NCBI GenBank assembly: GCA_963772715.1
Contig: CAVYYM010000020.1
Coordinates: 19,918-83,917 of the forward strand
Reading direction: 5' to 3'
Source: an uncultured Bacteroidota bacterium
Lineage (GTDB): Bacteria; Bacteroidota; Bacteroidia; Bacteroidales; VadinHA17
DNA length: 64,000 nt
Part shown: positions 4,980-27,031 of the stretch, one piece after another
Numbering within the stretch: position 1 is the first letter of the stretch
Layout of the letters: the number at the start of each line of letters is the position of its first letter
Notes under the pieces: generated by a model
What the model saw: the letters and a program-made list of their open reading frames with translations, nothing else
Told to the model about the DNA's origin: nothing
Database searches by the model: none
Translations under genes and position numbers: made by a program

Positions 4980-5009
4980 AAATAATAAATCAGGGCGATC
5001 TTTAAAATA

Positions 5010-8968: not shown

Positions 8969-9845
8969 GCGCCGGAAAATCAGTCAGATCAGCAGTTCCT
9001 GATGCAGGATCAAGGGTTACATCCATTGTATATTTATAACCAAGAGTAGCAACGGGGACCGTAAGCGTTGCGGCATTGCTTGTCGCGGAGTAGCTGAACG
9101 CATCCGTAACCACACATCTGTACCGGTATCCGCTCATGGATTCTGCAGCGCCAGTGATCGAGAGGGTGCTGGTTCCTGTACCGGAATAAACTCCGCCATC
9201 TGACAGATTGGTAAATCCGCCGCCGTTGTCTTCCTGCCACCTGTAAGTAAAAGGGGTGCTTCCGCTAACCACCACGCTGAATGAGGCGTTGCATCCTGTA
9301 TAGTCAGAGGGCTGCGTCGTAATTCGCGGATGCGGTTTGCCTATAGCCAGGTCTGTGGTTGTGGCTGATATCCCGCTCATCCCGGTTCTGGTTATCTCCG
9401 GGCTTGCCACAGTTCCATGAGTGCCATCGAGTGTCAGGTTTCCGCCGTTAGTTCTCTTCAGGATCCTGGCGCGTGAATCAACATCTGAAAAGCCATTATA
9501 GTTCAGGTTGACACTGTAATTTGTCGATGCTATTGTTCCGGCTGTCATTATCCAGTAGCCTGTTGTCTGACGGTTATAAATCCAGTTTCCTGAATCATTA
9601 AGGGGAAGTCCCGCAGTTCCAATATCAGCGGTTTGAAAATTGACTGTAAGTGTTCCTGCTGTAAGGTTTGTACAGGTGATTTTCAGGGGATTATAAGACA
9701 GGGCTGTACCGACCGGGAACAGGTATTCCGTTCCCGCTGCGGTCAGGTTCCTTCGCAATTTTCCAATTACGGTCCCTGCTGCATATGAAAGGCTTCCGGT
9801 AACTGCCAGGGTGTTTGCGCCGGCATCGATATTGCCCAGTGTCAT
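8895..9845 (-). CDS. Adhesin middle fragment (same gene as 5522..8968, separated by a frameshift)
   Basis: 316-aa ORF with an Ig-like module (ITTQPSDYTGCNASFSVVVSGSTPFTYRWQEDNGGGFTNLSDGGVYSGTGTSTLSITGAAESMSGYRYRCVV) paralogous to the one in 5522..8968. It overlaps that ORF by 74 nt in another frame. Confidence 0.7.
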   Translation of the reverse strand: MTLGNIDAGANTLAVTGSLSYAAGTVIGKLRRNLTAAGTEYLFPVGTALSYNPLKITCTNLTAGTLTVNFQTADIGTAGLPLNDSGNWIYNRQTTGYWIMTAGTIASTNYSVNLNYNGFSDVDSRARILKRTNGGNLTLDGTHGTVASPEITRTGMSGISATTTDLAIGKPHPRITTQPSDYTGCNASFSVVVSGSTPFTYRWQEDNGGGFTNLSDGGVYSGTGTSTLSITGAAESMSGYRYRCVVTDAFSYSATSNAATLTVPVATLGYKYTMDVTLDPASGTADLTDFPALVSFTSISAEDNGKWRPYEQCQWL

Positions 9846-10622
9846 AGTCAGGGTATTATTTACAGTTATGTTTCCGGGAAGCGTGACACCAGCCGAATTA
9901 TTGACACTGAGATTATAATAGGTATAGTTCCCAAGAGTTTGTGCTGCACCACCATTATATATAACAGTTCCTGAAGTCGGTGCGGCAGCTCCTCCTGCTT
10001 GCTGTACTTGTTATATTCCCTCCTGTGATGCTGCCGCCAATATTTAATGATCCTGCACCTGTAAACAGTATATAAGTCCTCAGATTGCTTGAATTCAAAG
10101 CAATATTGCCGGTACCGTAACAGTACCTGTTGATATCCTGATAAATGCATCCCTGAATCCCCATTGGAATTGGCGCTAACAGAGCCGGTGCGTGAAAATG
10201 CCGGCATCAACCAGCACAGCTTTCGAAGTATTATTATTATCCGGAATTAAGAAAAGTCTGACCCGTACTGTCAGCGAAAAGTTGCCGTTGAAAGAGACAT
10301 AGGAATTATCGTTGCCAGCGCCAATACTTAATGCACCAATACTGTTGGGAACATTTGCTGATAACTGTCACATTGTGGTGTTCAGTATATTTACTGTTCC
10401 TGCCCCGGCATTCTGTCCCGGATAAGTAGTGTTTGTTGCACCAACCCATGTCCCTGCCGTAACACATCGCTGCCAGTTAGCAGCTGTGTTCCAGTTCCAT
10501 GTGCCAGTTGCATTTGTACGGTAATCTCCTACCGCCTGGCCTGATGCAATCAGTGTGGCAGTGATTAATTCTACAGTAATTAAAAATCTCCTTGCTGAAA
10601 TCAGTGGGCTGAAGGTCTTCAT
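9846..10622 (-). pseudogene. Adhesin N-terminal region with signal peptide, broken by one in-frame TGA and several frameshifts
   Basis: ORF 10368..10622 starts MKTFSPLISARRFLITVELITATLIASGQA (signal peptide) and ends at the TGA at 10368-10370. The same frame continues open as QLSANVPNSIGALSIGAGNDNSYVSFNGNFSLTV... Adhesin-like sequence then switches frame, for example GTGNIALNSSNLRTYILFTGAGSLNIGGSITGGNITS in ORF 9955..10164. Confidence 0.6.
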
Positions 10623-10642
10623 ACTGGTTATATTGGTTTCAC

Positions 10643-11518
10643 TTACCTGATTGCCAATTCTGCTTCAGCATATCTTTCAGGCTTGACATCGGAGGGTGCA
10701 GAATATATCACGCGCAATGTTCCCGACCTGAGGTTCGTTCCTTTCGGGGGATTGAGGTTAAGTGCAAAGTTTCTGACAAGATTGGGTGTATAGACCGCAA
10801 TGCCATTTGCAATTCCAACCCGGGTCACTTTACCCTGGGGTGAAATATGATCAACGGTAAGGTCACCGTAAACTGACATGTTTCCGGTACGATTGAACTT
10901 CATTTTCAGTCGTGGTATCGTATCACTGACATATTCCAGCGCAAGGTCAGTGAATTTTGCCGAGACGGTGGTATTGCCCGATCGGATTATTACAGGTATC
11001 GTTATTCCGAATATCGGTGTAAGTCTTACCGTGAGTGTTGTAGTGTCCCTGATCTCCGGCTCACCCAGCGGATCTTCCTTTGGCACCGCCCTGAAATAGA
11101 GATGAGAGCGGTATTCCCCTTCTGTAAGTTCCCCTGTCCTGATGAGTTGCACCTTTACTACCTGAGCTTCTCCGGGACCCAGTGTAACGCTTCTCGGGAA
11201 AAAGCGTACAAATCTGTCGGCAAACATCTGTCCCGGATCGGGTTCAGTTATCGTTTCGAAACTGCCGTCCTCCTTCATTCTTTCCTGGAGGAAAGAGACA
11301 GCGTATATGGCTGTATCTTTCCCGATGTTTGCAAGGTTAAGGTCGATCGTACGTTTCGATCCCTCGAACACCAGGCGTTTTGGTGTAATGAGAAGGTTAC
11401 CCTGTGCGTTCAAGCCGCCGGATATCAGAATGAAAATACCTGCAGCCAATGCTGCAGAAAAAAACAACCTGCCGGGTTTATGTGCCCGGCCGGTCAACAA
11501 CAAATCGTATGCTGCCAT
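10643..11518 (-). CDS. PapD-like periplasmic pilus chaperone (two Ig-like domains)
   Basis: 291 aa with a signal peptide (AALAAGIFILISGGLNAQ). Then LLITPKRLVFEGSKRTIDLNLANIGKDTAIYAVSF ... RFFPRSVTLGPGEAQVVKVQL, which resembles the chaperone N-domain pattern. It sits between DUF4402 subunit genes and the adhesin. Confidence 0.6.
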   Translation of the reverse strand: MAAYDLLLTGRAHKPGRLFFSAALAAGIFILISGGLNAQGNLLITPKRLVFEGSKRTIDLNLANIGKDTAIYAVSFLQERMKEDGSFETITEPDPGQMFADRFVRFFPRSVTLGPGEAQVVKVQLIRTGELTEGEYRSHLYFRAVPKEDPLGEPEIRDTTTLTVRLTPIFGITIPVIIRSGNTTVSAKFTDLALEYVSDTIPRLKMKFNRTGNMSVYGDLTVDHISPQGKVTRVGIANGIAVYTPNLVRNFALNLNPPKGTNLRSGTLRVIYSAPSDVKPERYAEAELAIR

Positions 11519-11541
11519 TTTACTGTTATGTTTAGACTTTT

Positions 11542-12072
11542 CTAGTTGAAGTCAAATGTAATTGAATATGTACCCGTGTAAATACCCACAGGATTATCAA
11601 TAAGCGTACCAACTTTCAGCGTTGCACCAACGTATACAACCTGAAATCCATTCTGCAGCATACCTGTACCTGTTCCGGATGATGGATGTGACACCCATTG
11701 CTCCACCTTCATCGTCCTGGCATTGGCAGTATTGGTCAGAAGCACCGGCCTGTCAGGCAGATTTATCGAAAAAGCGGCATCCTCGTTTCCCGAGACATAA
11801 AAGCTTGCCGCATTGTGAAGCCCGGTTCCGGCAAACACGCTTCCGAGAACAGAGATAGTGCTTTGAGGTGTCAACACTATCTCACCGCCCTGCGGGCCGG
11901 GAGAAAACTTCCCGAAATTCATCTGGGAAGATTCACTTACCGAAAATACAGGAACGACCTCGGCGGTAATATGACCGGTCACTGTAAATTCCTGGCCGGA
12001 CTGGGCACTCAGATCAAGTGCTTCAATCAATAATATAATAAGGCTGAAAAGTATCTTAACAGTCCTTCTCAT
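11542..12072 (-). CDS. DUF4402-type secreted fibre subunit (paralogue B)
   Basis: 176 aa with a signal peptide (LIILLIEALDLSAQ). The C-terminus is VGATLKVGTLIDNPVGIYTGTYSITFDFN. Confidence 0.7.
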   Translation of the reverse strand: MRRTVKILFSLIILLIEALDLSAQSGQEFTVTGHITAEVVPVFSVSESSQMNFGKFSPGPQGGEIVLTPQSTISVLGSVFAGTGLHNAASFYVSGNEDAAFSINLPDRPVLLTNTANARTMKVEQWVSHPSSGTGTGMLQNGFQVVYVGATLKVGTLIDNPVGIYTGTYSITFDFN

Positions 12073-12101
12073 TATTCCCCCGGAATAGAATCTTATACCT
12101 A

Positions 12102-12611
12102 CTAATTATATTGCACGGTCACCGGGTATGTTCCCGTATATGTGCCGGATGCCTGACCAACTGCCACTGTCAGGGTAGCGCCTACGCTAAATGTCTCTGT
12201 TCCGGTACCGGGAGCAACTCCGGGTATAGTGCCTGAAGCATTGGAATTGAATCCGTCTACAGCCATGGTGACTGCTCCGTTGGAAATAGTAACGGTTCCA
12301 TTCGCCGGAAGGGTGGTTGTATAAGTAAGTGCTCTCTCCCCGGTAACGGTAAATGTTCCTGCTGTATGAGCCGGAGCAGCTGCAGACACAGCACAGGTAC
12401 CTGACCGTACACCTGCAGTTGAAACGATCACTGTACCGCCAGTGTTATAAGCGACACCAAAATGAAGTGTTGTACCTGCGGTAAGTGTTATTGGAGCAAT
12501 TATTACCGCTGCAGCATTTCCGTTTGCAGTTGCACTTGTCTGCGAAAATCCTGATAAAGTAAACCCAAGCATTACGGTTACTGCTGCAAAAATTTTAATG
12601 ATTTTTTTCAT
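12102..12611 (-). CDS. DUF4402-type secreted fibre subunit (paralogue A, first gene of locus, likely major subunit)
   Basis: 169 aa with a signal peptide (MKKIIKIFAAVTVMLGFTLSGFSQ). It is Ala/Thr/Gly-rich and ends VGATLTVAVGQASGTYTGTYPVTVQYN, the DUF4402-like terminal motif as I remember it. Confidence 0.7.
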   Translation of the reverse strand: MKKIIKIFAAVTVMLGFTLSGFSQTSATANGNAAAVIIAPITLTAGTTLHFGVAYNTGGTVIVSTAGVRSGTCAVSAAAPAHTAGTFTVTGERALTYTTTLPANGTVTISNGAVTMAVDGFNSNASGTIPGVAPGTGTETFSVGATLTVAVGQASGTYTGTYPVTVQYN

Positions 12612-12889
12612 TTTTCAAGAGATTTTAATTGAGGTTTATTAATAATGATCACTGTTTATTCGGTTTATTTATTTAAAAAAGTCTAAAATTTTTCACAAAA
12701 TAGAACTTCTAATCGTATGTGCAATCGCTCAAATTTTCAACATATCAACACCATTTGAAAATTATTAACAAGTCATATTAAACCTTAATGCTAACCCGGA
12801 ATCTAAGAGCGCTCCGACTACTCCTTTCTCCATCAGCTAATGCTCCCATTCCATTTTTCTTTGTATATTCGTATTACAATTATATTACC

Positions 12890-14005
12890 ATGCAGAAAGG
12901 ATCAATATCGAAGAGCGGAAGATTTATCGTCCTGCTCCTTCTTTCCGGTTTCATTTTCACCAGCTCCCCGGCACAGCAGGTACAGAATGTAAGATTCACT
13001 CAATCCGGAAAACAGATCATCATAGCCTATGAAATTACGGGCGCCCAGCAGGGACAGACATTTGATGTGCAGGTTTACTGCAGTATCGATAATTTCAGCT
13101 CGCCTCTGAAAAGTGTTACAGGTTCAGTAGGTCCGGGAATAACAGGAGGCAGTCCAAGAAGCATAATATGGGATGTTACGTCTGACCGTGAAAGCCTGAA
13201 CGGCAATATCAGCTTCGAGGTCAGGGCAAAACCAAGTACAGTCAAAAGCACATCGACATCGACAACGACAACGACACCGACAACGGCACCAGCAACGGCC
13301 AGGGTCAATCCGGCATCGGACGATTACTGGGTCAGTGTCCCGGGAGGAACATTCAGCATGGGAAGTCCTGCCGATGAACCGCAAAGAGGGTCGAATGAGA
13401 CTCAGCATCAGGTCACACTCAGCTCTTTCAAGATCGGAAAGTACGAAGTTACATTTGAAGAATACGATGCTTTTATTTCAGGTACCAAGAAGAGAAAACC
13501 CGGGGATTTTGGCTGGGGTCGCGGCAAACATCCGGTAGTGGATATAACATATGAAGAGGCCAAAGCCTTTGCCGAATCGAAAGGGTGCCGCCTGCCTACT
13601 GAAGCAGAATGGGAATATGCCTGCAGGGCAGGGACTACGACACCTTTCTTTACTGGCGATAATATTACATCAGGACAGGCAAACTACAACTTTGCCGAAC
13701 CATATAATAATAATGCCAAGGGAAAGCCCCTGGGGAAAACCCAACCGGTTGGCAGCTATGGTCCAAATGCCTGGGGGTTATACGATATGCATGGGAATGC
13801 ATCGGAATGGGTAAGCGATTACTTTGGTAATTATGAGTCTGGAAATCAGAAAGATCCAAAGGGTCCTGCGACAGGGGCCGACAGGATACGCCGGGGCGGG
13901 AGCTGGTATGATAACGGAGCGAGAACAAGATCAGCAGCCCGGATAAAATGGGATCCGGATAAGGCCGACAAGATTCTGGGCTTCCGGCTGGTATCAGACA
14001 ATTAG
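12890..14005 (+). CDS. Secreted FGE-sulfatase/SUMF1-family domain protein (Ig-like N-domain, Thr/Ser linker, FGE domain)
   Basis: I prefer the internal start MQKGSISKSGRFIVLLLLSGFIFTSSPAQQ (signal peptide) over the ORF-track start at 12788. The FGE-type motifs are FKIGKYEVTFEEYDAF, HPVVDITYEEAKAFAESKGCRLPTEAEWEYACRAG, WGLYDMHGNASEWVSD and RIRRGGSW. Confidence 0.8.
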   Translation: MQKGSISKSGRFIVLLLLSGFIFTSSPAQQVQNVRFTQSGKQIIIAYEITGAQQGQTFDVQVYCSIDNFSSPLKSVTGSVGPGITGGSPRSIIWDVTSDRESLNGNISFEVRAKPSTVKSTSTSTTTTTPTTAPATARVNPASDDYWVSVPGGTFSMGSPADEPQRGSNETQHQVTLSSFKIGKYEVTFEEYDAFISGTKKRKPGDFGWGRGKHPVVDITYEEAKAFAESKGCRLPTEAEWEYACRAGTTTPFFTGDNITSGQANYNFAEPYNNNAKGKPLGKTQPVGSYGPNAWGLYDMHGNASEWVSDYFGNYESGNQKDPKGPATGADRIRRGGSWYDNGARTRSAARIKWDPDKADKILGFRLVSDN

Positions 14006-14080
14006 TACGACAACACAATAATTAACAATAAGATAACAGAATATTTCGTATCTTTATAGTTTGTATCCAATCGACCGGTC

Positions 14081-15874
14081 ATGGAAAAATATTTTCTGGC
14101 CATACTGCTTTCCCTCCTGACACTTAATGTGTTCCCTCAGACTATCATTAAGGGAAGGTCGCAACAGGAAAATGTAAGCATTAAGAAGGATGCATCCGGT
14201 GCAATTGCAATGGGAACCGAAATCAGGGGCAAATCGCCTTCAAGCCCTGTAGAAATCGTTCAGGAATCTGCCATCAATCCTCCTCAGCTTCAGGCTGAGA
14301 ATCTCCAGTTTGTTGATGCGGACGGCAACAATTTCATCGACGCAAATGAAAATGCAAGGATTTTCTTTACCGTCAGAAATGCAGGTGAAGGCCCTGCTCT
14401 GAACCTGGAAGCTAAAATAACAGAAAAAAACAGGGTTCAGGGACTTGACTTCAAACCCAAGACTCTCGGAACTTTAAAACCGGGCGAGGTCAGGACTGTA
14501 GAGATTCCTATAACCAGCAATCTAAACACAACGAACTCGACAGCATCATTCAACATTTCCATAACTGAAACGAACGGATTCGGTATCGATGTCGGAAATA
14601 TGCTGGTTCAAACCAGAGCTATTGTTGCACCACTTGTAACTATTGCTGAAATAGATTATGGCAGCCTTCCGGTGAGGAAGAACGAGAAGTTCGATGTCAG
14701 GGTGATTGTTCAGAATACGGGACAGGGAAATGCCGAAAATGTCAATTTATCACTTTCACTCGTGGCCAATGTATTCCTTACTAATGGCAATTCATCTTTA
14801 ATGATCGGGAGCCTTGCCCCCGGTGAAACCAGGGAGGTGAGATACACATTCATCACAAACAATAACTACAACCTCAGCAAAATAGTCATTCCTTTTATTC
14901 TTACGGAGAAGTATGGCAAGTATGCTGAAAACGGAAAAAGCCCTGCAACAATACCGGTGGACCTTCAGCTTACAGCCGTCAAGCAAATGGAAGTCCAGGG
15001 AGAACAAAGGGCAGTTCCTGAAACAAGGCCGGCTGCAACAGCAGTACCGGCTGGTACGGCTGCTGCATCATTCACCTCCGATGTCGACAGGGATATCCCT
15101 GTTATTACTTCTAAGAATGCAGCTAATAAGGTTGCTCTTATTATAGGCAACGAAGATTATTCGAAAGCCTACAACGCCGAGTCAAATGTCGATTTTGCAG
15201 CAAGGGATGCACGGATCTTTGCAGAATATGCAAAGAAGGTACTGGGAATACAGGAAAAGTTTGTACTGCTGTCGGTCGATGCAACCTACATGGTCATGAA
15301 ATCGCAGGTTCAGAGGGCCATTGATATAGCAAAGGTCGTAGGTCCGACAGCTGAAATAGTTTTTTATTATGCAGGACATGGTTTTCCTGATCAGTCTACA
15401 AAAATACCATATCTTATACCGGTTGATGTGAGCGCCTCCAATCTCACGTCAGCCATCAAGCTCGCCGATATTTATGCACAGCTGGGCAGCTCCGGGGCCA
15501 GCCGCGTAACTGTCTTTCTCGACGCTTGCTTCAGCGGCGGCGGACGCGACATGGGACCTGTCAATGCCAGATCTGTAAGGATGGCGCCGAGCACAGAGGA
15601 GGGCATGGTCACAGGCAACATGGTCGTCTTCACGGCCAGCACGGGAGAACAAACAGCGCAGGCACTTAAGAAACAACAGCATGGACTTTTTACATATTAC
15701 CTGCTGAAGAAACTAAAGGATTCTCAGGGAAACGTTACATATGGCGATCTGTTCGACTACATCAACAAGCAGGTTCAGCTCGATGCATTGACTGAAAACA
15801 ACAAGCCTCAGGTTCCGGTTTTTATTTCCAGCGGCCTGATAGGTGATAAATGGAGAACGTGGAAGATCAGATAG
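14081..15874 (+). CDS. Secreted caspase-family (peptidase C14) protein with two CARDB/Ig-like N-terminal repeats
   Basis: Signal peptide MEKYFLAILLSLLTLNVFPQ. Repeats FFTVRNAGEGPALNLEAKI... and VRVIVQNTGQGNAENVNLSL... The caspase domain is KVALIIGNEDY...IVFYYAGHG (His codon 15377-15379)...VTVFLDACFSGGG (Cys codon 15527-15529). Confidence 0.85.
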   Translation: MEKYFLAILLSLLTLNVFPQTIIKGRSQQENVSIKKDASGAIAMGTEIRGKSPSSPVEIVQESAINPPQLQAENLQFVDADGNNFIDANENARIFFTVRNAGEGPALNLEAKITEKNRVQGLDFKPKTLGTLKPGEVRTVEIPITSNLNTTNSTASFNISITETNGFGIDVGNMLVQTRAIVAPLVTIAEIDYGSLPVRKNEKFDVRVIVQNTGQGNAENVNLSLSLVANVFLTNGNSSLMIGSLAPGETREVRYTFITNNNYNLSKIVIPFILTEKYGKYAENGKSPATIPVDLQLTAVKQMEVQGEQRAVPETRPAATAVPAGTAAASFTSDVDRDIPVITSKNAANKVALIIGNEDYSKAYNAESNVDFAARDARIFAEYAKKVLGIQEKFVLLSVDATYMVMKSQVQRAIDIAKVVGPTAEIVFYYAGHGFPDQSTKIPYLIPVDVSASNLTSAIKLADIYAQLGSSGASRVTVFLDACFSGGGRDMGPVNARSVRMAPSTEEGMVTGNMVVFTASTGEQTAQALKKQQHGLFTYYLLKKLKDSQGNVTYGDLFDYINKQVQLDALTENNKPQVPVFISSGLIGDKWRTWKIR

Positions 15875-15907
15875 TAATTAAAGATCAACATAAAACAATA
15901 TCAATAT

Positions 15908-16551
15908 ATGAGGAAGTTCTATCGCGATTTTCATACTATGCCTGATTGCATCATACGCATCATCACAGGAGGCAACATACGGGGAAAAATGCCACCCTCT
16001 CTGAAAAAGCCTCCAAGGAAGCTGCAAAGGAAGCAAAGAAAATGCAGAAGGATGGATGGACAGTTGCTCCCGGATCCGTTCCTCTTGAAAGGATCATTGA
16101 AAATGCCTGGATGAAGCAGGTGATGGTGGATGAAAATGGGAATCCAGTGTATTTATATGCTGATGGCAATGCTGTTGCCGAAACAAAATCGGCTGCACAG
16201 ATGCACGCAATTGAGGTCGCAAAACTTGAGCTGGCCAATATGCTGCAATCAAATATGAGCTCGCTTATTTCAGCAAACATCGGAAACGCACAGCTCTCAA
16301 CCCAGGAGGCCGCTTCAGTGACCGAGGTTGTTTTATCGTCCAAGAACCAGATCGCAGTGAAGCTCGGATATATAGATCCTACATTCAAGCTTTTCAGGGA
16401 TATAGGCAAGAATAATGTCGAAGTGCAAGTGAGGCTCTTTTACGATATTAAGCAGTCGATGGAGATAGCCAAGGGGGTGATCCGTAATGAGCTCCAGACC
16501 AAGCTTAAACTAAACGAGGAGAAACTGGATAAACTGATTGCTAACAGTTAG
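15908..16551 (+). CDS. LPP20-like helical (lipo)protein; 5' end carries two frameshifts that hide its signal peptide
   Basis: The body, in frame 15946..16551, reads ...AVAETKSAAQMHAIEVAKLELANMLQSNMSSLISANIG... The ATG at 15908 gives MRKF. The next frame reads SIAIFILCLIASYASSQEATYGEK (signal peptide). The 15946 frame then continues NATLSEKASKEAAKEAKK. The His-rich start MHHTHHHRRQH in the ORF track is an out-of-frame artefact. Confidence 0.6.
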
Positions 16552-16560
16552 AATCCGGTA

Positions 16561-18240
16561 ATGAAGAGAGTCCTGGTGATATTATCGCTTCTCTCCTGCT
16601 TTCAGCTTTCAGCACAGGAAAACATAGTCAATATGCTTGCCATACGGGGATACGGCAAAAACACCCGTGCAATAATCGTGGCAAATGAGGATTACCAGTC
16701 ATACTCGGGCTCCCCGGTCTATGTCGAAAACGAGGAGCTGGCGATTCTTCAGGCCGAGAAGTTCCAGCAGATGCTGATCAAAAAACTTGGTGTACTGCCG
16801 CAGAACATACAGTTCTATCCTGATGCGCAAACCACTCATATCAAGCTTGCCATAACGAAGCTGCAAAGAGATCTGCCTGGTGATGCCAGGATAATATTCT
16901 ATTACCGCGGCAAGCTGTTCACCGACGACAGGAAAAGAGATACTTGGATAATCCCTGTGGATGTAATCCCAGTTAATATCTCAGATGAGGAAACTTTCTT
17001 TATGCTCGGCATGAGTGATCTCTGCACCCGTCTGAACACCATAAACAAGGGAGGAGTGGCCATTTTCCTCGACGCGCAACCAAACGTATCTGTTGGTTCT
17101 GCAAACATTCTCGAGAATGGATGGCTTGCCGGTGAAATTCCTATTACAGGCACCAGAAATATGGAGCTCTTCATGCTGAAGCTCCCTCCTCCCGCACCAA
17201 AAACGGAACAACCTGTTACTGCCGTTAAGCCTGCCATTACAATAACGGAACCCTCTGCAGATATGATCTCTACACGGGAGGCGACTGTAACGATAAGAGG
17301 CAAGGTGGACTCAAATTGTCCTGTGGAGGTGGTTGCTATCGGCGGACAGGAAGCAAACTTCTCCGAGGATGGCCGGTTCATGGCAAAAATGGTGCTCAGC
17401 GAGGGAGAGAATACCATTTTGGTTGAGGCAAGAAACTGTGCCGGATGGACAAGAAAAATGCTGACCTTTAACCTTATCAGTCCTGAAGCCAATGTCGTGG
17501 ATGATGCAGAATCAGGCACCCTGAAGGAGATGGGAAAGAATTATGCAGTCGTGGTCGGAGTGAGCAAATATTCAGATCCGGTGATGCCCGATCTTTTCTA
17601 CCCTATTCTGGATGCCAGGAAAGTCGCAGGTGCTTTAACTGCAAACTATACATTTGAAAAGAAGGATGTGTTGCTTCTCGAGAATCCGACAAAAGGCCGG
17701 ATAATAAATATTCTTGATTCACTTGAGACTGTAATCACAACCAAGGATAACCTGCTGATTTTCTATGCCGGTCATGGAAACTGGGATGAAAAAAAATCCA
17801 TCGGATACTGGCTGCCTTCGGATGCAGCCGCACGTTCACTCGACAACTGGCTGATGAACAGTATTATAACAGCATTCGTGAGCGAAAGCAAAGCCCTTCA
17901 CACTCTTGTAATTGCTGATGCATGTTTCGGAGGCAGCATTTTCAGGACACGTGCCTTACCGCCGGAGGAGGTAAAGAGCATCACTGAATTGTATCAAAAA
18001 ACAAGCAAGAAGGCGATGACCAGCGGCGACCTGATGGAAGTGCCAGACGAAAGCATATTTGTAAAAACTTTCATTGACCAGCTCACTTCGAACAAGGAGA
18101 ATTACCTTCCGACTGAAAAGCTTTTTTTCAGTATAAAACCAAGTGTTGTAAAGGTGGCTGACCTGATCCCACAATTCGGCACGATAAAAAATTCCGGAGA
18201 CCAAGGAGGAGATTTTATTTTCTTCAGAAAAAATCCATAA
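16561..18240 (+). CDS. Secreted tandem pseudo-caspase + Ig-like + active caspase (peptidase C14) protein
   Basis: Signal peptide MKRVLVILSLLSCFQLSAQ. The N-domain aligns to a caspase fold but has IIFYYRGKLF in place of YYAGHG and IFLDAQPNV in place of LDACFSG, so both catalytic residues are lost. The C-domain keeps LLIFYAGHGNWD and LVIADACFGGSIF. Confidence 0.8.
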   Translation: MKRVLVILSLLSCFQLSAQENIVNMLAIRGYGKNTRAIIVANEDYQSYSGSPVYVENEELAILQAEKFQQMLIKKLGVLPQNIQFYPDAQTTHIKLAITKLQRDLPGDARIIFYYRGKLFTDDRKRDTWIIPVDVIPVNISDEETFFMLGMSDLCTRLNTINKGGVAIFLDAQPNVSVGSANILENGWLAGEIPITGTRNMELFMLKLPPPAPKTEQPVTAVKPAITITEPSADMISTREATVTIRGKVDSNCPVEVVAIGGQEANFSEDGRFMAKMVLSEGENTILVEARNCAGWTRKMLTFNLISPEANVVDDAESGTLKEMGKNYAVVVGVSKYSDPVMPDLFYPILDARKVAGALTANYTFEKKDVLLLENPTKGRIINILDSLETVITTKDNLLIFYAGHGNWDEKKSIGYWLPSDAAARSLDNWLMNSIITAFVSESKALHTLVIADACFGGSIFRTRALPPEEVKSITELYQKTSKKAMTSGDLMEVPDESIFVKTFIDQLTSNKENYLPTEKLFFSIKPSVVKVADLIPQFGTIKNSGDQGGDFIFFRKNP

Positions 18241-18347
18241 CCACAAAGAACACTAAGTATTTCACAAAGGCGCACAAAGAATAGGATTTTAATAATTCTT
18301 CGTGTTCCTTAGTGTGTACTTTGTGAACTTTGTGGTTAACATTAGTT
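18241..18347. repeat. CACAAAG/CTTTGTG-rich imperfect palindrome between convergent genes (probable bidirectional terminator / REP-like)
   Basis: Outer arms are ccacaaag (18241-18248) and ctttgtgg (18328-18335). Inner arms are cacaaagaat (18273-18282) and attcttcgtg (18295-18304, 9/10 complementary). Permuted cactaag / cttagtg modules lie between them. Confidence 0.5.
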
Positions 18348-19283
18348 TTATTTTGAAATTGTTATATCAATATAATCCACTTCCACATTTGCTTTTTCGT
18401 AGCTCCGGTATTTGTTGAGCCAGCGCTGGAAATCCTCTGACTCAAGTGATTTAGGCAGAATATACGGATATTCAGTTTCCTTAACATCATTTAATGACGG
18501 CTTATTTAATGGCTGCTTGGAAAAGACTATGAAGAGCCTGTTTATGGAGCGTGGAGCGTCGGTGTACATAAAGCAATCCAATTTGAGAAAATTCTTTCCC
18601 GGGAAATAATCAAACTTCGGATTATTTGAAAAGATAATGTATTTTTTATCGGCAGAGACCGGAACACCGCCTTCATATTCAGATGGCATTGTATGGTACG
18701 GATACAGGCATTGTGTCTTGCCATCCTCATCGAGAAAGATGGAAATATATCCGGTCGATGGTGAAGAGAAGTACAAATAAAGCTTTTCATTCAGCTTGAA
18801 GTCTGTGGTCTTGCATCCTTCATTCTCGCAGTTCAAAGTGAAAGCGGTGAAATTCACCGGCGGCGTGGTAACCTCCCTGGCTTCGATCTCAATATCGCAT
18901 TTTATTTCAATGTAAGTTTGCTTTTTGCCTTCAATGGTCCTGGTGCCCTGTATATCGCTGAATTGCGGCGTGCCTATCACTCTCACTACCTCACCTTTCA
19001 CGGATGTGTTGGCTATGGTGTTGAAAGCAGATTTGGTCTCTGTCTGTTTGCCAGTCTGAATGTTTGAGATGTAAGTTGTGTTACCCTGGATTACAATCCT
19101 GCCAAATGCCCTCTCGAGAGCATCAATGGTTGCCTGCTCCTCAGCTTGCCTCTTTACCTCCTCCTTTGTAAGATTGTCGGGGAACTCGACCTGAGCAGTA
19201 CCCTTTACCTTCACTGTTTTTTGTGAGAATAAGAATACAGGGCAGAAGGCAATGAAAAGACAAAAACAGATAAACTTTCGCAT
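18348..19283 (-). CDS. Secreted LPP20-like + DUF4384-like domain protein
   Basis: Signal peptide MRKFICFCLFIAFCPVFLFSQ. The N-part is KEEVKRQAEEQATIDALERAFGRIVIQ... The C-part, KLYLYFSSPSTGYISIFLDEDGKTQCLYPY...KKYIIFS, resembles DUF4384, a domain I recall as frequently associated with caspase domains. Confidence 0.6.
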   Translation of the reverse strand: MRKFICFCLFIAFCPVFLFSQKTVKVKGTAQVEFPDNLTKEEVKRQAEEQATIDALERAFGRIVIQGNTTYISNIQTGKQTETKSAFNTIANTSVKGEVVRVIGTPQFSDIQGTRTIEGKKQTYIEIKCDIEIEAREVTTPPVNFTAFTLNCENEGCKTTDFKLNEKLYLYFSSPSTGYISIFLDEDGKTQCLYPYHTMPSEYEGGVPVSADKKYIIFSNNPKFDYFPGKNFLKLDCFMYTDAPRSINRLFIVFSKQPLNKPSLNDVKETEYPYILPKSLESEDFQRWLNKYRSYEKANVEVDYIDITISK

Positions 19284-21015: not shown

Positions 21016-21743
21016 TTACAATAACGAGGCTGAATCAATATCAAGGTACAGCCATGCTTTTTCGTGATTTCTCAGAATCGATGCCGGGATCAAAGGGGAG
21101 ACCGGTTCCTTTAATGTCTTCCTTACTGCTTCAGCCTTTCGAAGATCGGGGACACTGCAGATGATCGCTTTCGATTTCATTATCTGCCTTATCGACATGC
21201 TGATAGCCTGTAACGGGACATCTTCGATGGAGGCGAACCATCCCTCCCCCAGCTGCTGCCTCCGGCAGGCTTCGTCAAGATTCACAACCAGATACGGCTC
21301 TTCCGTTTCGAAGTCGGCAGGCGGATCATTGAATGCCAGGTGACCATTTTCCCCGATACCAACAAATGCAATATCAATCGGACATTGTATGATTAACTCT
21401 CCAAGCCGTCTGCACTCTTTCCCGGGATCGGTTTCGCCATTCACATAATTGAATTTCTTCAGTGGAACAAGGCTGGCAAACCTCTCCCTGAGATATTTTC
21501 TGAATGATGCAGGATGAGATTCAGGAAGACCGATATATTCATCGAGATGAAAGGCAGTGACTTTTCGTCCAATCGATATTTTCCCTAACAAGCGCTGAAA
21601 GCATCTCAAATTGGGAAGCACCCGTGGCAACGATAATGTTTGCTTCTCCCCTTTCTGCAATGGCTTTCCTGATCAGAGTCAGCACCTGTTGCTGCGGCTT
21701 TCAGTCCAAGCTCCTTCTTATTTACTGATATTATTGTTTCCAT
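21016..21743 (-). pseudogene. nagB: Glucosamine-6-phosphate deaminase (NagB) with at least two frameshifts in the 5' third
   Basis: ORF 21016..21660 carries [13 protein letters not shown]...[22 protein letters not shown]. The missing N-terminus can be read in other frames: METIISVNKKELGLKAAA (ATG at 21743-21741), then [42 protein letters not shown]. The shifts fall near gcagca/acag and in an A-run (acgaaaagtc). Confidence 0.75.
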
Positions 21744-23049
21744 ATTTCTTTAAATAATTTAAGTTATCATCCATGGGTGTCATTTTTGGCATAAGCAAGA
21801 TGAACGAAACCAATATCACCAGGTAAAGGAACCCTGCAATAATAAATGCCCAGAAATATCCCGAGTTGTTTGCTTTGTCAAGAACTGAACCAAGAGCAAG
21901 ATCAGCGATGATCGAGACACCTACCCCAACCATTTTTCCGACGCCAATGACCGAGGCTGTCGCCTTTTTCGGGAACACGTCAGGCACAAGTGTATAGCTG
22001 TTTATCGACCATGCCTGATGTCCTGCAGCGCCTAGAGCTATCAATGCTACTGCAATCCATTTGCTTGTCACCATGGGTACAATGGTCAAAGGCAAAATGA
22101 TGACAGCACAAACAAGCAACGTTATCTTTCTGGCTTTGTTTATCGGCCATCCCCTTTTTATCAATGCCCCTGAAGCCCAGCCTCCGATAAGACTTCCTGC
22201 ATCTGCCATGATAAAGATTACCAGGAAAGGAAGTCCGATGTTCTTTATATCAACGCCATACTGTTCACCAAGGAATTTGGCACCCCAGAAAAGGTAGAAC
22301 CACCATACTGCATCTGTCATTGTGGTAAGTGCAAAAGCCCACGTTTCTCTTTTTGGCAGGATCTTCACCCAGGGGATCCTTTCTTTTGATTCGACCTCTG
22401 AATCGCTGTTGATGTATTCGAGCTCTTTTCCAGATAGTTTTGGATGTAGTTCAGGTTTCCGGTAAGTTTTCAGCCATAGGAATACCCAAAGTGCGCTCAA
22501 CGCGCCTGTAATCAGAAACGGTATCTGCCAGTTCTTCCCTTCAACTGTAACAATTGCCCCGACAATGAATGGTGCCAGAATCGCCCCTACACTGGTCGAA
22601 GCATCAAAGATTCCGGTGGCAAACGCACGGTCCTTTTTCGGGAACCACTCAGCGACAGTTTTAATCGCGGCCGGAAAGTTTCCCGACTCACCGATACCAA
22701 GTCCAAACCGGGCCGCCATAAATCCGACCAGACTGAATGATTGCCTGATCACTGCATGCAGCATGCCGAAAATACTCCACGTTACGATTGAGATAGTATA
22801 TCCTATTTTTGTTCCAAACCTGTCAATGAAGCCGCCCATGAAGAATAATCCGATCCCATAGGCAATCTTGAAAGACACTGTAATTGATGCATAATCTTTG
22901 TTGGTCCATCCGAAAAGGTTCTGCAGTGTCGGAGCCAGAACCCCTAGTATGCTCCTGTCAAAATAGTTGATTGTTGTGGCCATGAAGACCAGGGCCAGTA
23001 TCCTGTACCTGTAATGCCCCACCCTCTCATTTAAATTCTTATCACTCAT
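21718..23049 (-). CDS. MFS transporter (ACS/hexuronate-transporter-like)
   Basis: 443 aa and intact. The N-terminus YRYRILALVFMATTINYFDRSILGVLAPTLQ is typical of ExuT-like MFS transporters. Multiple TM segments. Confidence 0.8.
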   Translation of the reverse strand: MSDKNLNERVGHYRYRILALVFMATTINYFDRSILGVLAPTLQNLFGWTNKDYASITVSFKIAYGIGLFFMGGFIDRFGTKIGYTISIVTWSIFGMLHAVIRQSFSLVGFMAARFGLGIGESGNFPAAIKTVAEWFPKKDRAFATGIFDASTSVGAILAPFIVGAIVTVEGKNWQIPFLITGALSALWVFLWLKTYRKPELHPKLSGKELEYINSDSEVESKERIPWVKILPKRETWAFALTTMTDAVWWFYLFWGAKFLGEQYGVDIKNIGLPFLVIFIMADAGSLIGGWASGALIKRGWPINKARKITLLVCAVIILPLTIVPMVTSKWIAVALIALGAAGHQAWSINSYTLVPDVFPKKATASVIGVGKMVGVGVSIIADLALGSVLDKANNSGYFWAFIIAGFLYLVILVSFILLMPKMTPMDDNLNYLKKYGNNNISK

Positions 23050-23098
23050 TAATCTATCTTTTCAACATTCTCAGATTAATTCTACTAATCACTATTCA

Positions 23099-26000
23099 CT
23101 AATCACCATCATTTTTAACCACTGGTTTTATTTTAATGGTAAAATCATATCGTACAGGCATTACCTGATATTGTGTGAATACCGATAATGCAGTGCATCC
23201 TACTCCGCTGGTGGCATAATCGAAATTGAATGTTATTCCGTCGAAAGGATTAAGCTGGTAAGTATAAAGAGCTTTTGTAAGGTTATCGGCAGAATATGGC
23301 TGAGCACTGAAGTTGAAAAGCTTATCACCTGAGAATTCGAGCCCGGTGCCATCCTTATCGGTAATCCTTACCCAGCGGTTATCGGTCCGCAATCCATAAT
23401 CCTGAGGAATAAGGTATGGCTCATACATATCTTTTACAGTCGATTTGTACTGACCTATTCTGTAACCGCTTTTCCTGTCGGGATAATTCTCCTGCGGTCC
23501 TCTTCCATACCATTCGACATTTTCAAGTGATTTGCTGAGAATCATCCCGAGACCTACCCTGGGAAGCCATGAGGGCATGTCGCCGTCGGGGATCACTGAA
23601 TGCATTATCGTTATTTCGCCTGCTCCTGAAACTGTGTACCTGTAATTATTTATGAAGGCACCCCTGCCTGTCGGAAGTGATGCAACACTCACCACCGACA
23701 CTTCAGCGTATTCCATCATCATTGGTCCTTACATTGAAAGAAATTGATTTTCATCTGAAGATTGTCGAGTCCTGTATTAAACCATTCCGATGATGCCCAT
23801 TTTCCATTAAAATCGGATAAATGTTTGTTATTTGAACTCCAGAAACCCCATTCATCGATTTCATTCGCAAGCGGCGCCCGCCATACATTCAGCTGTGCGC
23901 CCTTCTTTATCATTTCCCTGCCTGATACTATCATTGAGATCAGCATTCCTGAACTTTTACTGAAAGTATATGAGAAATTATTCCCGCCAATTTTAACTGT
24001 CCCGTTTTCTTCTGTAACCGGACAGGTTCAATAAAGCCTTTACCATTTTTTTGTATTGGTTTGTACCAGGAGAGATCAAACTGATCCCAGGCAATCTCGA
24101 ATCCCTGCTCAGCCCACATTGTCTTCTCCTTCTGATGAAACTCAATGTCAAACGATACTCTGCTCCCTCCTTCAATGCAGGCTTATGAAAAGGCACAGTT
24201 ACGATTTCCGATTCAAGAGGTTTGATATCAAGTTTCAGTTCTCCTTTTTCAATTATCTCACCATCAGCCTGCAGCATCCATTCTGTTCGAAGGTCAGAAA
24301 GGTTCGTAAAGAGATATTTGTTGGTAATCCTGACTTTGCCATCCTCTTCCGATATCAGTTCAGCCCTGACAGGCTGACCCATCTTCTTAAACTGCCACAT
24401 TTCAGGCTGAGGACGTCGGTCGGGCCAGATAGAGCCGTAAGTCCTGGCTCCAATCCCATAACTGAAAAACTCTCCGCCTGTTGCAATTTCTTCAAAGTCG
24501 AGCCATAGGGCAGCCTCTTTCTTAAGCTCCGGAGAAGGTGATCTTAAAAGCTCCTGTTTAATGTTCTTACTGAAGATACCAACCTGATCGATTATTGCAT
24601 CACAGATATATGTACCGTTTCCTGACCATGGATCTCTGCATTTCTTCCGATATTGACCGGAAATGGGGTGTTCCTGATATTGCCGGAAACAGGCTGCCTG
24701 GCACTCTCCTTTCCGTCGATGGTCAGATACATCTCCTTTCCATCGTAATTGGCTGAAACCAGGTGCCAGTTGTTCTCCCAGTTTTCAGGAAGAGGAATTC
24801 TTACCGTTTGTCTGCTGCGTGTGGTCAAATAAAACTCCAGTGACTCTTTTCCAATCTGGTGAACCCCGAACTGGTTATTGCCCTTGGTTATCAGTGTGCC
24901 GGCAGAACTGCTCAGAGCCCTTGGGTACACCCATAATGAAAGTGTGAGCTGATCGCCGTCGATCTCAAGGGCTTCATCCCCATAAACCTCTACCCACTGG
25001 TCGTGTCCGTTCAGGTCTATCCCTTTTCCATGGAGACCCGGAACGAGCTTTGCCCTGCCCATTATATTCACCTGTACATTGTTAGGTGATGCATCTTTGA
25101 GAGTCTGACCTTTTCGGTTATACCCGTGCTTACAAAGTCCCAGATGGCGCCGCCCATGCTTCTCGGGTATTTATAAAAGATCTCCCAGTATTCATCAAGT
25201 CCTCCGCCGCCGTTACCGGTAACTGCAACATATTCATCGAGAAAAGAGGGTCTTGGATCATCAGCCGGCGGGAACAGGACATTACGTTTGTCAGAAGTTC
25301 CCGTATCGAAGGATACCTGGGGCCGATAATATCCTCGCATTTCTGTGCAAATGCATTTCCTCCGTACATCCAGTATCGGGTTCTGTCATAGTTTCTTTCC
25401 CTCATCAATAACTGCACAGATATTATCTCCTTCCCCGCTCTCATTGCCTGCGCTCCAGAAAAGGATGCAGGGATGATTCCTGTCGCGAAGCACCATTTTT
25501 CTGGCTCTTTCCCGATACATTCCCTCCCACTCCTTCCTGGTCGAAACATATTCCGTGCCATGTGATTCGTCGCCGGTTTCATCGATAATGTATATTCCAT
25601 ATTCATCTGCCAGCTCCAGGTATCTGATTACAGGAGGATAATGTGAAGTCCTTACACAATTGATATTGAACTGTTTAAGAATTGACAGGTCCTTTCTTAT
25701 CGTTGCCTCATCCATTGTATGCCCAAGCAGAGGATGCTGCATATGGCTGTTTATGCCATTGAGCTTCACCGGTTTTCCATTAAGATAGAAAACCTGATTG
25801 CGTGATCTCTGTCTCTTTAAAGCCAATCCTGCCTGTGATTGACCTCAATGAGTCTTACCCGACTGATCAATCAGTTCAATAGTCAGGGTGTAAAGATTTG
25901 GCTATCTCTGCCGACCATTTTTCAGGATTATTGATTTCAGCAGAAAGTTGATTGTTGTTGTCCCTGATGCGGCAGTAACGGAGAATTTTTCTGAATTCAT

Positions 26001-26751: not shown

Positions 26752-27031
26752 CTTCCTGGTTCAGTTCAAAAACCGTGTGTTTTCAATGTAATTGATAGAT
26801 ATCCGACAGGAAAGGTCTTCTGCTGGGCATTGCAGGCAAATGCAATGTCAGCAGGAAAACAGATGGATAATAAGTTTCTTTTCATTGCGGTCAGGTTTAA
26901 TTGGAAGTGAAATATACGACAAATTGATTATTCCGCCATGTGTCATAAATTTTCATCGAATTTGTCGTCATGAATTACATATTATATTAATTTTCAGTTC
27001 ACATGAAACAATCATCTAAAATACTTTAAAA

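Follow-up and report, generated by a model that had tools for sequence, protein, structure and literature searches.

A recurrent, exported orthocaspase module of uncultured Bacteroidia, probably a cell-envelope protease system

Surveys of prokaryotic caspase homologues have noted that these proteins occur in fusions with WD40, FGE-sulfatase and DUF4384 domains, that inactive pseudo-variants exist, and that some members carry N-terminal helices that are possibly signal peptides. Bacterial caspase homologues have been discussed almost wholly as cytoplasmic cell-death or defense proteases, and the literature merely remarks that some of them may be equipped for export. The conflict systems described by Kaur, Burroughs, Iyer & Aravind (2020) place caspase and FGS domains around nucleoside triphosphatase (NTPase) cores. 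DUF4384 has been described as a domain commonly found in fusion with proteases. Some Csx30 proteins end in this domain, and Csx30 is cleaved between its domains by the caspase-like Csx29. Here we analyze a cluster of five genes (g1 to g5) located in a 64,000-nucleotide stretch of DNA from an uncultured Bacteroidota bacterium (contig CAVYYM010000020.1; the whole stretch is called the window below). Two of the genes, g2 and g4, encode caspase-domain proteins, g1 encodes an FGE-sulfatase-domain protein, and g3 and g5 encode partners of two further families. A sequence-only reading of the window, made without database searches, had proposed that the five genes specify an undescribed envelope proteolytic system linked to a neighboring fiber locus.

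The observations behind that proposal were largely right, with the exception of LPP20 labels given to two of the proteins, and the interpretation as an undescribed envelope protease module was right in spirit; it was wrong on the unit, which is a trio of genes with add-ons and no fixed five-gene set, and on the link to the fiber locus. The module itself is genuine, occurs widely among uncultured Bacteroidia and is small enough for experiments, and no new principle is demonstrated by it. What is new here is an orthocaspase system in an exported, NTPase-free form with two dedicated partner families. Neither the operon, nor the g3 family, nor the pseudo-caspase/Ig/caspase architecture of g4 was found described in the open-access full-text literature, in line with the earlier suggestion that the system is undescribed, although absence from that literature is not proof.

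A conserved trio and its variable partners

The conserved core of the module consists of g3, g5 and a C14 caspase with an intact catalytic dyad, whereas g4 and the FGE protein are frequent add-ons. Related loci were gathered by exact-protein look-ups, from species-representative genomes (18 loci) and from metagenomes (80 loci, found with a g5 alignment). The earlier loci were compared by BLAST and clustering, and all 108 loci of the final analysis were scanned with hidden Markov models (HMMs) built for the families. Where a source is named, the hosts of close homologues are Bacteroidales or Bacteroidia metagenome-assembled genomes. In the first 20 loci, g3 was present in all, a caspase in 19, g5 in 18 and an FGE gene in 8, the gaps falling mostly at contig ends. 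A strict survey, limited to 28 non-redundant loci flanked by 4 kb or more on each side, gave the following counts: g3 in 24, g5 in 25, a caspase in 22, either a caspase or the exported family f8 (see below) in 25, and FGE in only 5. The genes are therefore syntenic rather than scattered, but the five of them do not form the functional unit that had been supposed. The g4 gene is present where g3 identity is at least 59% and is absent from more distant loci. The FGE gene, when present, always lies directly upstream of a g2-type caspase, an arrangement seen in 8 of the first 20 loci; in one of the related loci (L016) the pair lies 3.4 kb away from g3-g4-g5, with a 4-nt overlap between its two frames.

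The trio of g3, g5 and caspase recurs in about 100 loci with unrelated flanking genes; as almost every locus has its own flanks, the genes are not together merely through inheritance of a syntenic block. In its smallest form the trio is a compact g3-g5-caspase operon whose stop and start codons overlap (L019, L022, L104), and overlapping or abutting frames were seen in five loci (these three, L074 and L082). In nearly every locus g5 adjoins g3, often with overlapping stop and start codons. Three independent kinds of gene fusion join the same components. One exported protein (L101) consists of a g3 domain (E 2e-43) followed by a caspase and is encoded beside g5; another (P0429) unites g3 with an FGE-sulfatase domain; and loci L064-L066 and L069 encode caspase and FGE in one protein, followed by f8, g3 and g5. 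A further fusion (P0471) links g3 to DUF4476. The g3-caspase, g3-FGE and caspase-FGE fusions, together with the overlapping frames, argue that the module proteins form a physical complex. The recurrence of the trio in so many unrelated contexts indicates that it is probably a real cell-envelope protease system without earlier description. A distant locus with Fib_succ_major neighbors keeps the trio at a g3 identity of 36%, which hints at a Fibrobacter-like origin of that locus.

The partner of g3 and g5 is not always a caspase. Several distant loci carry f8, another exported family (490-970 aa), in addition to or in place of the caspase; the window has no f8 gene. Its members share the pattern DCEDR...PGHV...CDPT; one of them gave a weak Peptidase_C39 match, and no PDB or solid Pfam match was found. 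f8 may be a second cysteine-protease partner of the proposed hub of g3 and g5.

Three loci are of note in their own right. In L081 (2-8196) caspase and g5 genes alternate in tandem (caspase-g5-caspase-g5-caspase), and g3 is missing from the 8.3-kb contig; the array suggests local duplication and diversification of a caspase/g5 pair. A contig binned as 'Chlorobiota' (L018, DAOVJU010000449.1) carries caspase, g5 and a g3 that is 66% identical to the Bacteroidales version; this could reflect mis-binning or recent transfer. Finally, a 4003-bp GenBank entry from human feces (L109, MT839828.1, 'UNVERIFIED: Bacteriophage sp.') holds g3, a 264-aa g5-like gene, f8 and an apparent phosphotransacetylase fragment. 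Given this gene content, the entry is probably bacterial DNA. It was the single match to g3 in a phage collection, and plasmids gave none. The genes neighboring the module in related loci are housekeeping genes (PFK, MoaC, TrmE, RecA/SbcCD, Mur ligases), and a defense-island or mobile-element context was rejected on these grounds.

In the window, the open reading frame (ORF) listing and translation gave spacings of 75 bp (g1-g2), 33 bp (g2-g3) and 9 bp (g3-g4), followed by a convergent g5 after a gap of 107 bp, in agreement with the coordinates and spacing reported for the cluster before (Table 1). The divergent region upstream of g1 is AT-rich as had been claimed, with a GC content of 29.1% against 45.3% across the window, and the promoter of g1-g4 is presumably located there. 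It contains no exact match to the Bacteroidetes -7 motif TAnnTTTG, and scans for sigma-70-like promoters and terminators were uninformative, their matches being no commoner than in shuffled sequence. A regulatory RNA in this region was rejected, as an Rfam search of the whole window was empty.

Table 1. Features of the window and, in the last five rows, f8 genes of related loci (locus coordinates)
Feature	Coordinates	Strand	Basis or remark
Divergent intergenic region between DUF4402 fiber gene and g1	12612..12889		278 bp, AT-rich
g1, exported accessory protein, 371 aa, FGE-sulfatase	12890..14005	+	PF03781
g2, exported orthocaspase, 597 aa, CARDB + Peptidase_C14	14081..15874	+	Pfam
g3, core subunit, ~213 aa, frameshifted	15908..16551	+	homologues; no Pfam or NCBIfam model
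g4, exported pseudo-caspase / Ig-like / active caspase, 559 aa	16561..18240	+	Pfam and homologue alignment
g5, core subunit, 311 aa, novel N-domain + DUF4384-related C-domain	18348..19283	-	homologues, AF2
DUF4402 protein	12102-12611	-	Pfam
DUF4402 protein	11542-12072	-	Pfam
291-aa protein, signal peptide, possibly chaperone	10643-11518	-	no Pfam family
Giant DUF2341 / Laminin_G_3 / Ig_7 adhesin, split by frame change	5522-10622	-	
Third DUF4402 protein	5010-5525	-	
1208-aa SPOR-domain protein	1353-4979	-	
f8, locus L015	3473-6079		
f8, locus L020	1847-3343		
f8, locus L021	10975-12438		
f8, locus L025	8665-11271		
f8, locus L064	4589-7213		

Predicted export and architecture of the component proteins

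The N-termini of all five proteins have a basic n-region, a hydrophobic stretch of at least 9 residues and a cleavage-like '...[AS]-Q' end, and the same pattern was found in nearly every member of each family across some 20 other loci. A glutamine following the signal-peptidase-I site is reportedly typical of Bacteroidetes (the 'Q-rule'), and the N-termini of g1 to g5 fit this rule. Scored by a heuristic, the five proteins and their homologues support the earlier view that every product starts with a signal peptide and that all parts act outside the cytoplasm. No Pfam match to a type IX secretion system (T9SS) C-terminal domain (Por_Secre_tail or CTD) occurs in any of the five proteins, and a lipobox cysteine is not conserved across any of the families; the default destination is therefore the periplasm. 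The g4 proteins of the closest relatives, including that of the window, contain a possible lipobox-like LLSC, and one distant caspase contains 'ASNC'.

HMM searches recovered both folds on which the proposal of a protease cluster depended, namely Peptidase_C14 in g2 and g4 and FGE-sulfatase in g1. In g2 the Peptidase_C14 match (E 1.6e-20, 74.3 bits, gathering score 21.4) spans aa 350-586 (nt 15128-15838). The catalytic dyad, already read as intact from the sequence, consists of His433 (15377-15379) and Cys483 (15527-15529) within the motifs YYAGHG and LDACFSG, both of which are kept in every g2-type orthologue examined. Two CARDB-like repeats had been assigned to the N-terminal part: one is Pfam-significant (E 2.5e-9, aa 198-261, nt 14672-14863), whereas the repeat upstream of it was seen only through weak NCBIfam matches. 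The N-region also shows a sub-threshold NCBIfam likeness to the extension of tail-specific peptidases of the MXAN_5808 type, which are periplasmic serine peptidases, and this would suit a protease of the periplasm. This N-terminal module is swapped among g2-type caspases, WD40 taking its place in L001, L019 and L022 and WG_beta_rep in L021 and L023.

The reading of g4 as a pseudo-caspase, an Ig-like domain and an active caspase in tandem was borne out by Pfam and by 83 full-length homologues. Pfam places a Glucodextran_B Ig-like domain at aa 224-298 (nt 17230-17454) and Peptidase_C14 at aa 327-477 (46.1 bits, cut-off 21.4), the active caspase domain as a whole covering nt 17539-18231. Its dyad, His405 (17773-17775) and Cys455 (17923-17925), is invariant in 83/83 homologues. 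The N-terminal domain (nt 16648-17205) is homologous to caspase domains (BLAST E about 1e-11 to 1e-12) and has Lys118 in place of the catalytic His and Gln173 in place of the Cys. Across the homologues Lys occupies the His position in 82/83, and the Cys position is filled by Gln, Leu, Thr, Ile or Ser, never by Cys, from which we conclude that this domain is an ancient and conserved pseudo-caspase. A search for g4 homologues returned more than 1,700 matches, about 95 of them with the full g4 architecture.

Against the PDB, a profile of g4 homologues reached Yca1 (E 1.8e-11), AtMC4 (E 3e-08), AtMC1 and MC9, and more weakly MALT1 (E 0.021). Only this family profile reached metacaspases; the single g2 caspase-domain sequence gave no PDB match. 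The invariant dyads, with metacaspases and MALT1 as the closest solved relatives, suggest that g2 and g4 are active proteases. In both proteins an Asp stands two residues ahead of the catalytic Cys (LDAC in g2, ADAC in g4), and a conserved upstream Asp (in RDAR of g2; D351 of g4) aligns with the 'INDA' motif of Yca1. These residues may form an acidic S1 pocket like that of the Arg/Lys-specific metacaspases, as in the structures of TbMCA2 and Yca1, and the caspase domains of g2 and g4 are predicted to be of that type.

The g3 protein matches no Pfam family, and neither Pfam nor NCBIfam holds a model for it. It has 181 close homologues (61-86% identity), and a g3 profile searched against 1.84 billion representative proteins identified 738 clusters (defined at 50% identity) at E<=1e-3, almost all with a length of about 215 aa; none of the 10 clusters looked up carries a name. 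Domain-wise identities make g3 the slowest-evolving part of the module (59-84%, compared with 44-85% for the caspase domains and 12-72% for the N-domains), the fastest-evolving parts being linkers, signal peptides and N-domains. AlphaFold2 (AF2) returned an alpha/beta model with a predicted local distance difference test score (pLDDT) of 72. Foldseek found nothing significant in the PDB for this model (best E 0.24), and profile searches against PDB sequences were likewise empty. The segment at nt ~16129-16188 ('DENGNPVYLYADGNAVAE') is the most conserved in sequence, yet it has the lowest AF2 confidence (pLDDT <50).

The second core subunit, g5, has 161 close homologues and consists of a signal peptide, an alpha/beta N-domain with a long beta-hairpin (nt 18864-19223) and a beta-sandwich C-domain (nt 18351-18863). 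Its AF2 model (pLDDT 78) shows the same two domains, with a strand-helix N-domain bearing a 20-residue beta-hairpin. Foldseek gave no significant PDB match (best E 0.013), and PDB-sequence profile searches returned nothing. As in g3, the most conserved part of g5 (aa 64-93, nt ~19005-19094; 'QGNTTYISNIQTGKQTETKSAFNTIANTS') has a pLDDT below 50. These conserved, low-confidence segments of g3 and g5 are candidate interfaces or conformationally switching segments that would fold only in a complex. At position 136, on the boundary between the two domains, 56/62 homologues have Arg or Lys. The C-domain had been called DUF4384-like, a label that the window protein itself does not earn (PF14326 at 18606-18800, 21.6 bits, under the gathering score of 27) but that holds at the level of the family, because 22/62 homologues match the model (best E 9e-7). 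Four g5 homologues also carry a precomputed DUF4384 assignment and one is named DUF4384 by NCBI; the C-domain may be read as a divergent member of that family. PADLOC-DB v2 gave a weak Csx19 match for g5 (E 6.5e-4).

The LPP20 labels that had been attached to g3 and to the N-domain of g5 did not stand. Neither window protein matches PF02169 at E<=0.01, and fold searches supplied no support. When 57 g3 and 62 g5 homologues were scanned at E<=1, LPP20 was absent from the tables of the first member of each set and among the families listed, which were the best 25 of 32 for g3 and the best 25 of 29 for g5, the remainder matching single members at most. No Lpp20, Tip-alpha or FlgP entry was among the top 50 Foldseek matches of either protein, searched as undivided models of pLDDT 72 and 78, a setting in which a remote likeness is possible. 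A lipoprotein cysteine at the cleavage site is not conserved in the g3 and g5 orthologues, whose signal peptides end in ...[AS]-Q. LPP20 identity was thus rejected by HMMs (window proteins and 119 homologues), PDB-sequence profiles and Foldseek alike. Homology between g3 and the g5 N-domain was also rejected: a first hhalign comparison hinted at a shared 'GN..Y' segment (P 0.005, probability 7%), and the probability dropped to 0.3% once the g3 profile was made more diverse and the g5 N-domain was trimmed.

The accessory protein g1 begins with a signal peptide (predicted cleavage Ala28|Gln29), which is followed by a beta-rich N-domain, putatively Ig-like, then a Thr/Ser linker and an FGE-sulfatase/C-type-lectin-fold domain, the last two being as the sequence-only reading had them. 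PF03781 is matched at E 5e-54 (184 bits) over aa 146-368 (nt 13325-13993), covering model positions 4-254 of 255. In true formylglycine-generating enzymes (FGE) the catalytic, copper-binding cysteine pair is presumably to be expected after the RGGS motif. The corresponding tail of g1, 'RGGSWYDNGARTRSAAR', is without any Cys, and the orthologues have none or one there; the domain appears to lack both catalytic cysteines, and the most plausible reading is a lectin-fold module that binds but does not catalyze, comparable to PvdO or GldK. The best NCBIfam matches of g1 are PvdO, GldK and EgtB, all far under their cut-offs; for PorK/GldK (TIGR03525) the score of 100 bits is well short of the equivalog cut-off of 350. 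There is no lipobox Cys in the signal peptide, which closes with ...SPA|QQ. No support was found for g1 as the target of a diversity-generating retroelement: the window holds no template-repeat copy of g1, and a YxDD scan gave two matches in ORFs longer than 200 aa, neither of which was taken as a reverse transcriptase.

Possible functions of the module

Our preferred reading, held tentatively and at somewhat less than even odds, is that the region encodes a Sec-exported, most likely periplasmic, orthocaspase module for the targeted cleavage of envelope proteins. The g3 and g5 proteins would form a non-catalytic periplasmic hub on which one or more proteases and the lectin-fold protein dock, and swappable Ig, propeller and lectin modules would select the ligand or substrate. 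The caspase domains would then cleave one or a few envelope proteins in a limited fashion, after Arg or Lys residues; g5 itself could be such a target, cut at the conserved boundary between its domains that bears Arg/Lys. Such a module would perform regulated proteolysis and not bulk digestion, and it might serve in envelope surveillance, defense, stress signaling or maturation. The roles named in the sequence-only reading, an activation cascade, the processing of surface proteins or an inter-bacterial function, are speculative. A hub role is suggested for g3 because it is the most conserved component and because the conserved segments of g3 and g5 are modeled with low confidence.

Several points weigh against this reading. 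The hub would follow from synteny, fusions and conservation only, and the roles given to g3 and g5 are guesses, as neither has a recognizable fold. The signal peptides were called by a home-made heuristic and not by SignalP, and some related caspases may be membrane-anchored or lipidated and not soluble. Cysteine proteases are unusual in the oxidizing periplasm, and the carriers appear to be sediment or wetland organisms. Some well-flanked loci are without g3 (L068, L093, L106) or without a protease (L078, L094) in the DNA covered. The module could, moreover, be inactive in this genome, as g3 is frameshifted twice.

An alternative is an extracytoplasmic immune or conflict system, in which WD40, CARDB or lectin-fold sensors would detect a foreign periplasmic molecule (from a phage, a predator or a toxin) and the caspase would cleave g5 or g3 as a pro-effector; the envelope would be damaged or sealed, as in a periplasmic counterpart of Craspase or of the gasdermin-protease systems. 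The best NCBIfam match of both caspases is indeed the conflict-associated 'caspase, EACC1-associated type' (NF047832), but at 68.1 and 61 bits the scores fall far under the cut-off of 140. PADLOC-DB v2 likewise recognized the caspases by its generic 'caspase' model alone (E 3e-12 and 2e-10), with no component of a defined system. Other features that would suit such a system are the swapping of sensor-like N-domains between lineages, the obligatorily inactive paralogous domain of g4, which could be a decoy or regulator, the proposal that FGE/FGS domains bind invader molecules in conflict systems, the occurrence of DUF4384 in the Craspase substrate Csx30, a genomic context that differs in almost every lineage, and the tandem array of L081. 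On the other side, no NTPase, nuclease, TIR domain or pore-former was recognized. The earlier statement that the cluster has no NTPase, TIR or nuclease partner is upheld, in that none is found among the window ORFs and none is conserved in related loci, and the same holds for a STAND, MoxR-vWA or GTPase core and for an EACC1 component. The neighbors are housekeeping genes and not defense islands, g3 is not found on plasmids and its sole match in the phage collection looks bacterial, and the strong conservation of g3 is atypical for arms-race genes. On balance we regard immunity as unlikely. A specific form of it is a periplasmic surveillance device in which swappable propeller, Ig or lectin sensors recognize a foreign molecule that has come through the outer membrane and activate an exported caspase on a g3-g5 platform, and cleavage of g5 at the interdomain Arg/Lys frees an envelope-acting effector; we consider this version decidedly unlikely. 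If true, it would be the first caspase-based defense acting outside the cytoplasm, and DUF4384 would gain a general role as a protease-released module, as in Craspase Csx30.

It is also doubtful, to about the same degree as immunity in general, that the module is decaying in this genome, with real g3 frameshifts, a lost signal peptide and no function left. That the gene at 15908 is frameshifted had been recognized from the sequence, and alignment to the intact 213-aa orthologue (L004) resolves two 1-nt insertions in the signal-peptide region, one at ~15920 and one between ~15965 and 15990. The ATG at 15908 opens 'MRKF' in frame 1, the signal peptide 'IAIFILCLIASYASSQEATYGEK' lies in frame 2, and the conserved body 'NATLSEKASKEAAKEAKKMQKDGW...' follows in frame 3 from about 15988. 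Two independent insertions within ~65 nt at the 5' end of one gene would fit decay, as would the frame changes of other window genes relative to L004: about five in a GH2 beta-galactosidase-like gene, one in a NagB/glucosamine-6-P isomerase-like gene and one in the giant adhesin (21016-26927, 8895-8977). The window represents either an indel-prone assembly or a set of pseudogenes at the frame-changed genes, and frame changes spread across such unrelated genes suggest the former. The second insertion is placed in a G4A5 run (15981-15989), because the frame switches there, and a homopolymer run fits sequencing error; the other four genes of the cluster are intact. Since the remainder of g3 is 80% identical to the orthologue and free of stops, and since other window genes change frame as well, assembly error is likelier than decay, and the g3 frameshifts are probably of that origin.

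The g3 protein might instead be a trans-acting, prodomain-like inhibitor or chaperone, no scaffold, that keeps the exported caspases latent up to its removal by some trigger, in the manner of a gingipain prodomain or a staphostatin, a role that seems to us decidedly improbable. It is about the size of a protease prodomain, its Lys-rich N-terminal helix offers potential Arg/Lys cleavage sites, it precedes the caspase straight after the signal peptide in the L101 fusion, and it is tightly co-conserved with cysteine proteases of two folds, the caspase and the C39-like f8. Yet g3 is also fused to non-protease domains (FGE-sulfatase in P0429, DUF4476 in P0471), shows no similarity to known inhibitors, and is always paired with g5, which would be superfluous for an inhibitor.

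An envelope-stress or signaling protease, feeding an extracytoplasmic function (ECF) sigma/anti-sigma pair or a SpoIIE sensor phosphatase in the manner of a site-1 protease, is a still more improbable reading. In L013 and L014 (e.g. L014 8474-10110) an ECF sigma factor, a zf-HC2 anti-sigma factor and a Spy/CpxP-like Metal_resist protein are encoded directly downstream of the caspase, and an ECF sigma gene lies inside or beside the module in L020 (1230-1850), L021 and L026 (5859-6443). SpoIIE phosphatases adjoin the module or the g3-DUF4476 fusion at L001 5762-8950, L012 18513-19691, L019 2170-3120 and L027 3338-7207, and Craspase joins a caspase-like protease and the DUF4384-bearing Csx30 to RpoE. 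Yet no sigma, anti-sigma or SpoIIE gene lies beside the cluster among the Pfam-scanned flanking ORFs of the window (several ORFs between 21016 and 24400 were compared with the L004 neighbors instead of Pfam), and in the strict survey sigma/anti-sigma genes and SpoIIE occur in 0/28 and 2/28 loci. Being absent beside the cluster and in most loci, the association is minor and possibly coincidental. Two of the four neighboring SpoIIE (PP2C) phosphatases carry Y_Y_Y/Reg_prop periplasmic sensor domains.

That g2 and g4 are nutritional exoproteases for protein scavenging is very improbable. Bacteroidota export many proteases, including clan CD enzymes such as gingipains and the C11 protease fragipain, and a role of Bacteroidetes metacaspases in polymer degradation has been suggested in the literature. 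The module, however, has neither a T9SS C-terminal domain nor SusC/D-type uptake genes, and its obligatory non-catalytic partners with overlapping frames, its conserved pseudo-protease and its swappable binding domains point to specific rather than bulk proteolysis.

Finally, maturation or processing of fibers or of the giant adhesin by a machinery sharing the divergent control region is the least credible reading: although the 278-bp region is common to both loci in the window and the same adjacency occurs in L004, L005, L007, L008, L032 and L033, DUF4402 flanks the module in just 7/108 loci, all of them close relatives, and in L009 and L006 all five genes are retained, to the extent that the contigs cover them, with no fiber genes. 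Every g5-bearing locus among the seven has a g5 at least 67% identical to that of the window (L007 ends before g5), and DUF4402 occurs in 3/28 loci with at least 2.5 kb of flank on both sides, two of the three being the same contig. The adjacency looks like synteny by descent with no conserved coupling, and the functional link proposed before was rejected on these grounds. The fiber/adhesin locus itself occupies window positions 1353-12611 on the minus strand, divergent from g1 (Table 1); DUF4402 appears to be uncharacterized.

Comparison with described systems

The module offers a three- to five-gene, NTPase-free system for asking what caspase-fold enzymes do in the bacterial envelope. Its fusion proteins predict binding partners within the module, and through it the function of DUF4384 and of non-catalytic FGE-fold proteins could be approached for the first time. 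MT839828.1 attests to a relative of the module in the human gut, and because this g3/g5-like/C39-like variant was recovered from human fecal DNA, tractable gut Bacteroidales may carry such a relative.

The retention of a dead caspase domain by selection beside an active one, seen in 83/83 homologues of g4, recalls the pairing of caspase-8 and cFLIP; in g4 the two domains are joined covalently in one exported bacterial protein. The exported clan CD proteases of Bacteroidota (gingipains of family C25, PorU, and fragipain/PmC11 of family C11) are likewise caspase-fold cysteine proteases that act outside the cytoplasm. We take gingipain to combine an inactive and an active caspase-like subdomain with an Ig-like domain, an arrangement that resembles g4. 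In contrast to gingipains and fragipain, the module belongs to family C14, has no T9SS CTD and no family-wide lipoprotein signal, follows another domain order, and comes with the g3 and g5 partners.

Among the non-catalytic, FGE-fold periplasmic proteins (PorK/GldK, GldJ and PvdO), g1 shares the fold without the catalytic cysteines and finds its best NCBIfam likeness in PvdO and GldK; presumably its lectin-fold domain has a binding or a structural role. It differs from them in its scores (100 bits against cut-offs of 350-500), in not being a lipoprotein, and in being paired or fused with a caspase, whereas proteins of the GldK and PvdO types go with PorN/GldN or pyoverdine genes.

The NTPase-centered conflict systems and EACC1-associated caspases draw on the same stock of domains, including the caspase, an FGE/FGS lectin-fold binder, WD40, inactive paralogues and variable effector or sensor modules. 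Unlike them, the module has no STAND, MoxR-vWA or GTPase core and no EACC1 or EAD domains, its caspases score less than half the family cut-off, and its parts are exported, theirs being cytoplasmic or located at the inner membrane.

Type III-E Craspase (Cas7-11-Csx29, Csx30, Csx31, RpoE) shares with the module a caspase-like protease, a two-domain partner with a possible DUF4384 C-domain, and an occasional link to ECF sigma factors, which neighbor some module loci. Unlike Craspase, the module has no Cas7-11, crRNA or TPR-CHAT protease: no ORF or Pfam match for Cas7-11/gRAMP, TPR-CHAT Csx29 or CRISPR components was found in the window, and Rfam finds no RNA family there. The caspase here is of the C14 and not the CHAT type, the N-domain of g5 is unrelated to anything known, and all module parts carry signal peptides, so that any analogy would be an extracytoplasmic one.

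The nearest described systems also include the orthocaspases (bacterial metacaspase-like C14 peptidases such as Microcystis MaOC1; Asplund-Samuelsson 2012; Klemencic & Funk). These share the C14 fold, the His/Cys dyad, the Asp before the catalytic Cys as in Arg/Lys enzymes, frequent fusion to WD40 or FGE-sulfatase domains and the existence of pseudo-variants, and in many of them a hydrophobic helix at the N-terminus is a possible signal peptide. Unlike the orthocaspases described, g4 joins a pseudo-caspase to an active caspase through an Ig domain, an architecture that we did not find discussed, and the caspases of the module belong to a conserved operon with the dedicated partner families g3 and g5, all parts of which are exported.

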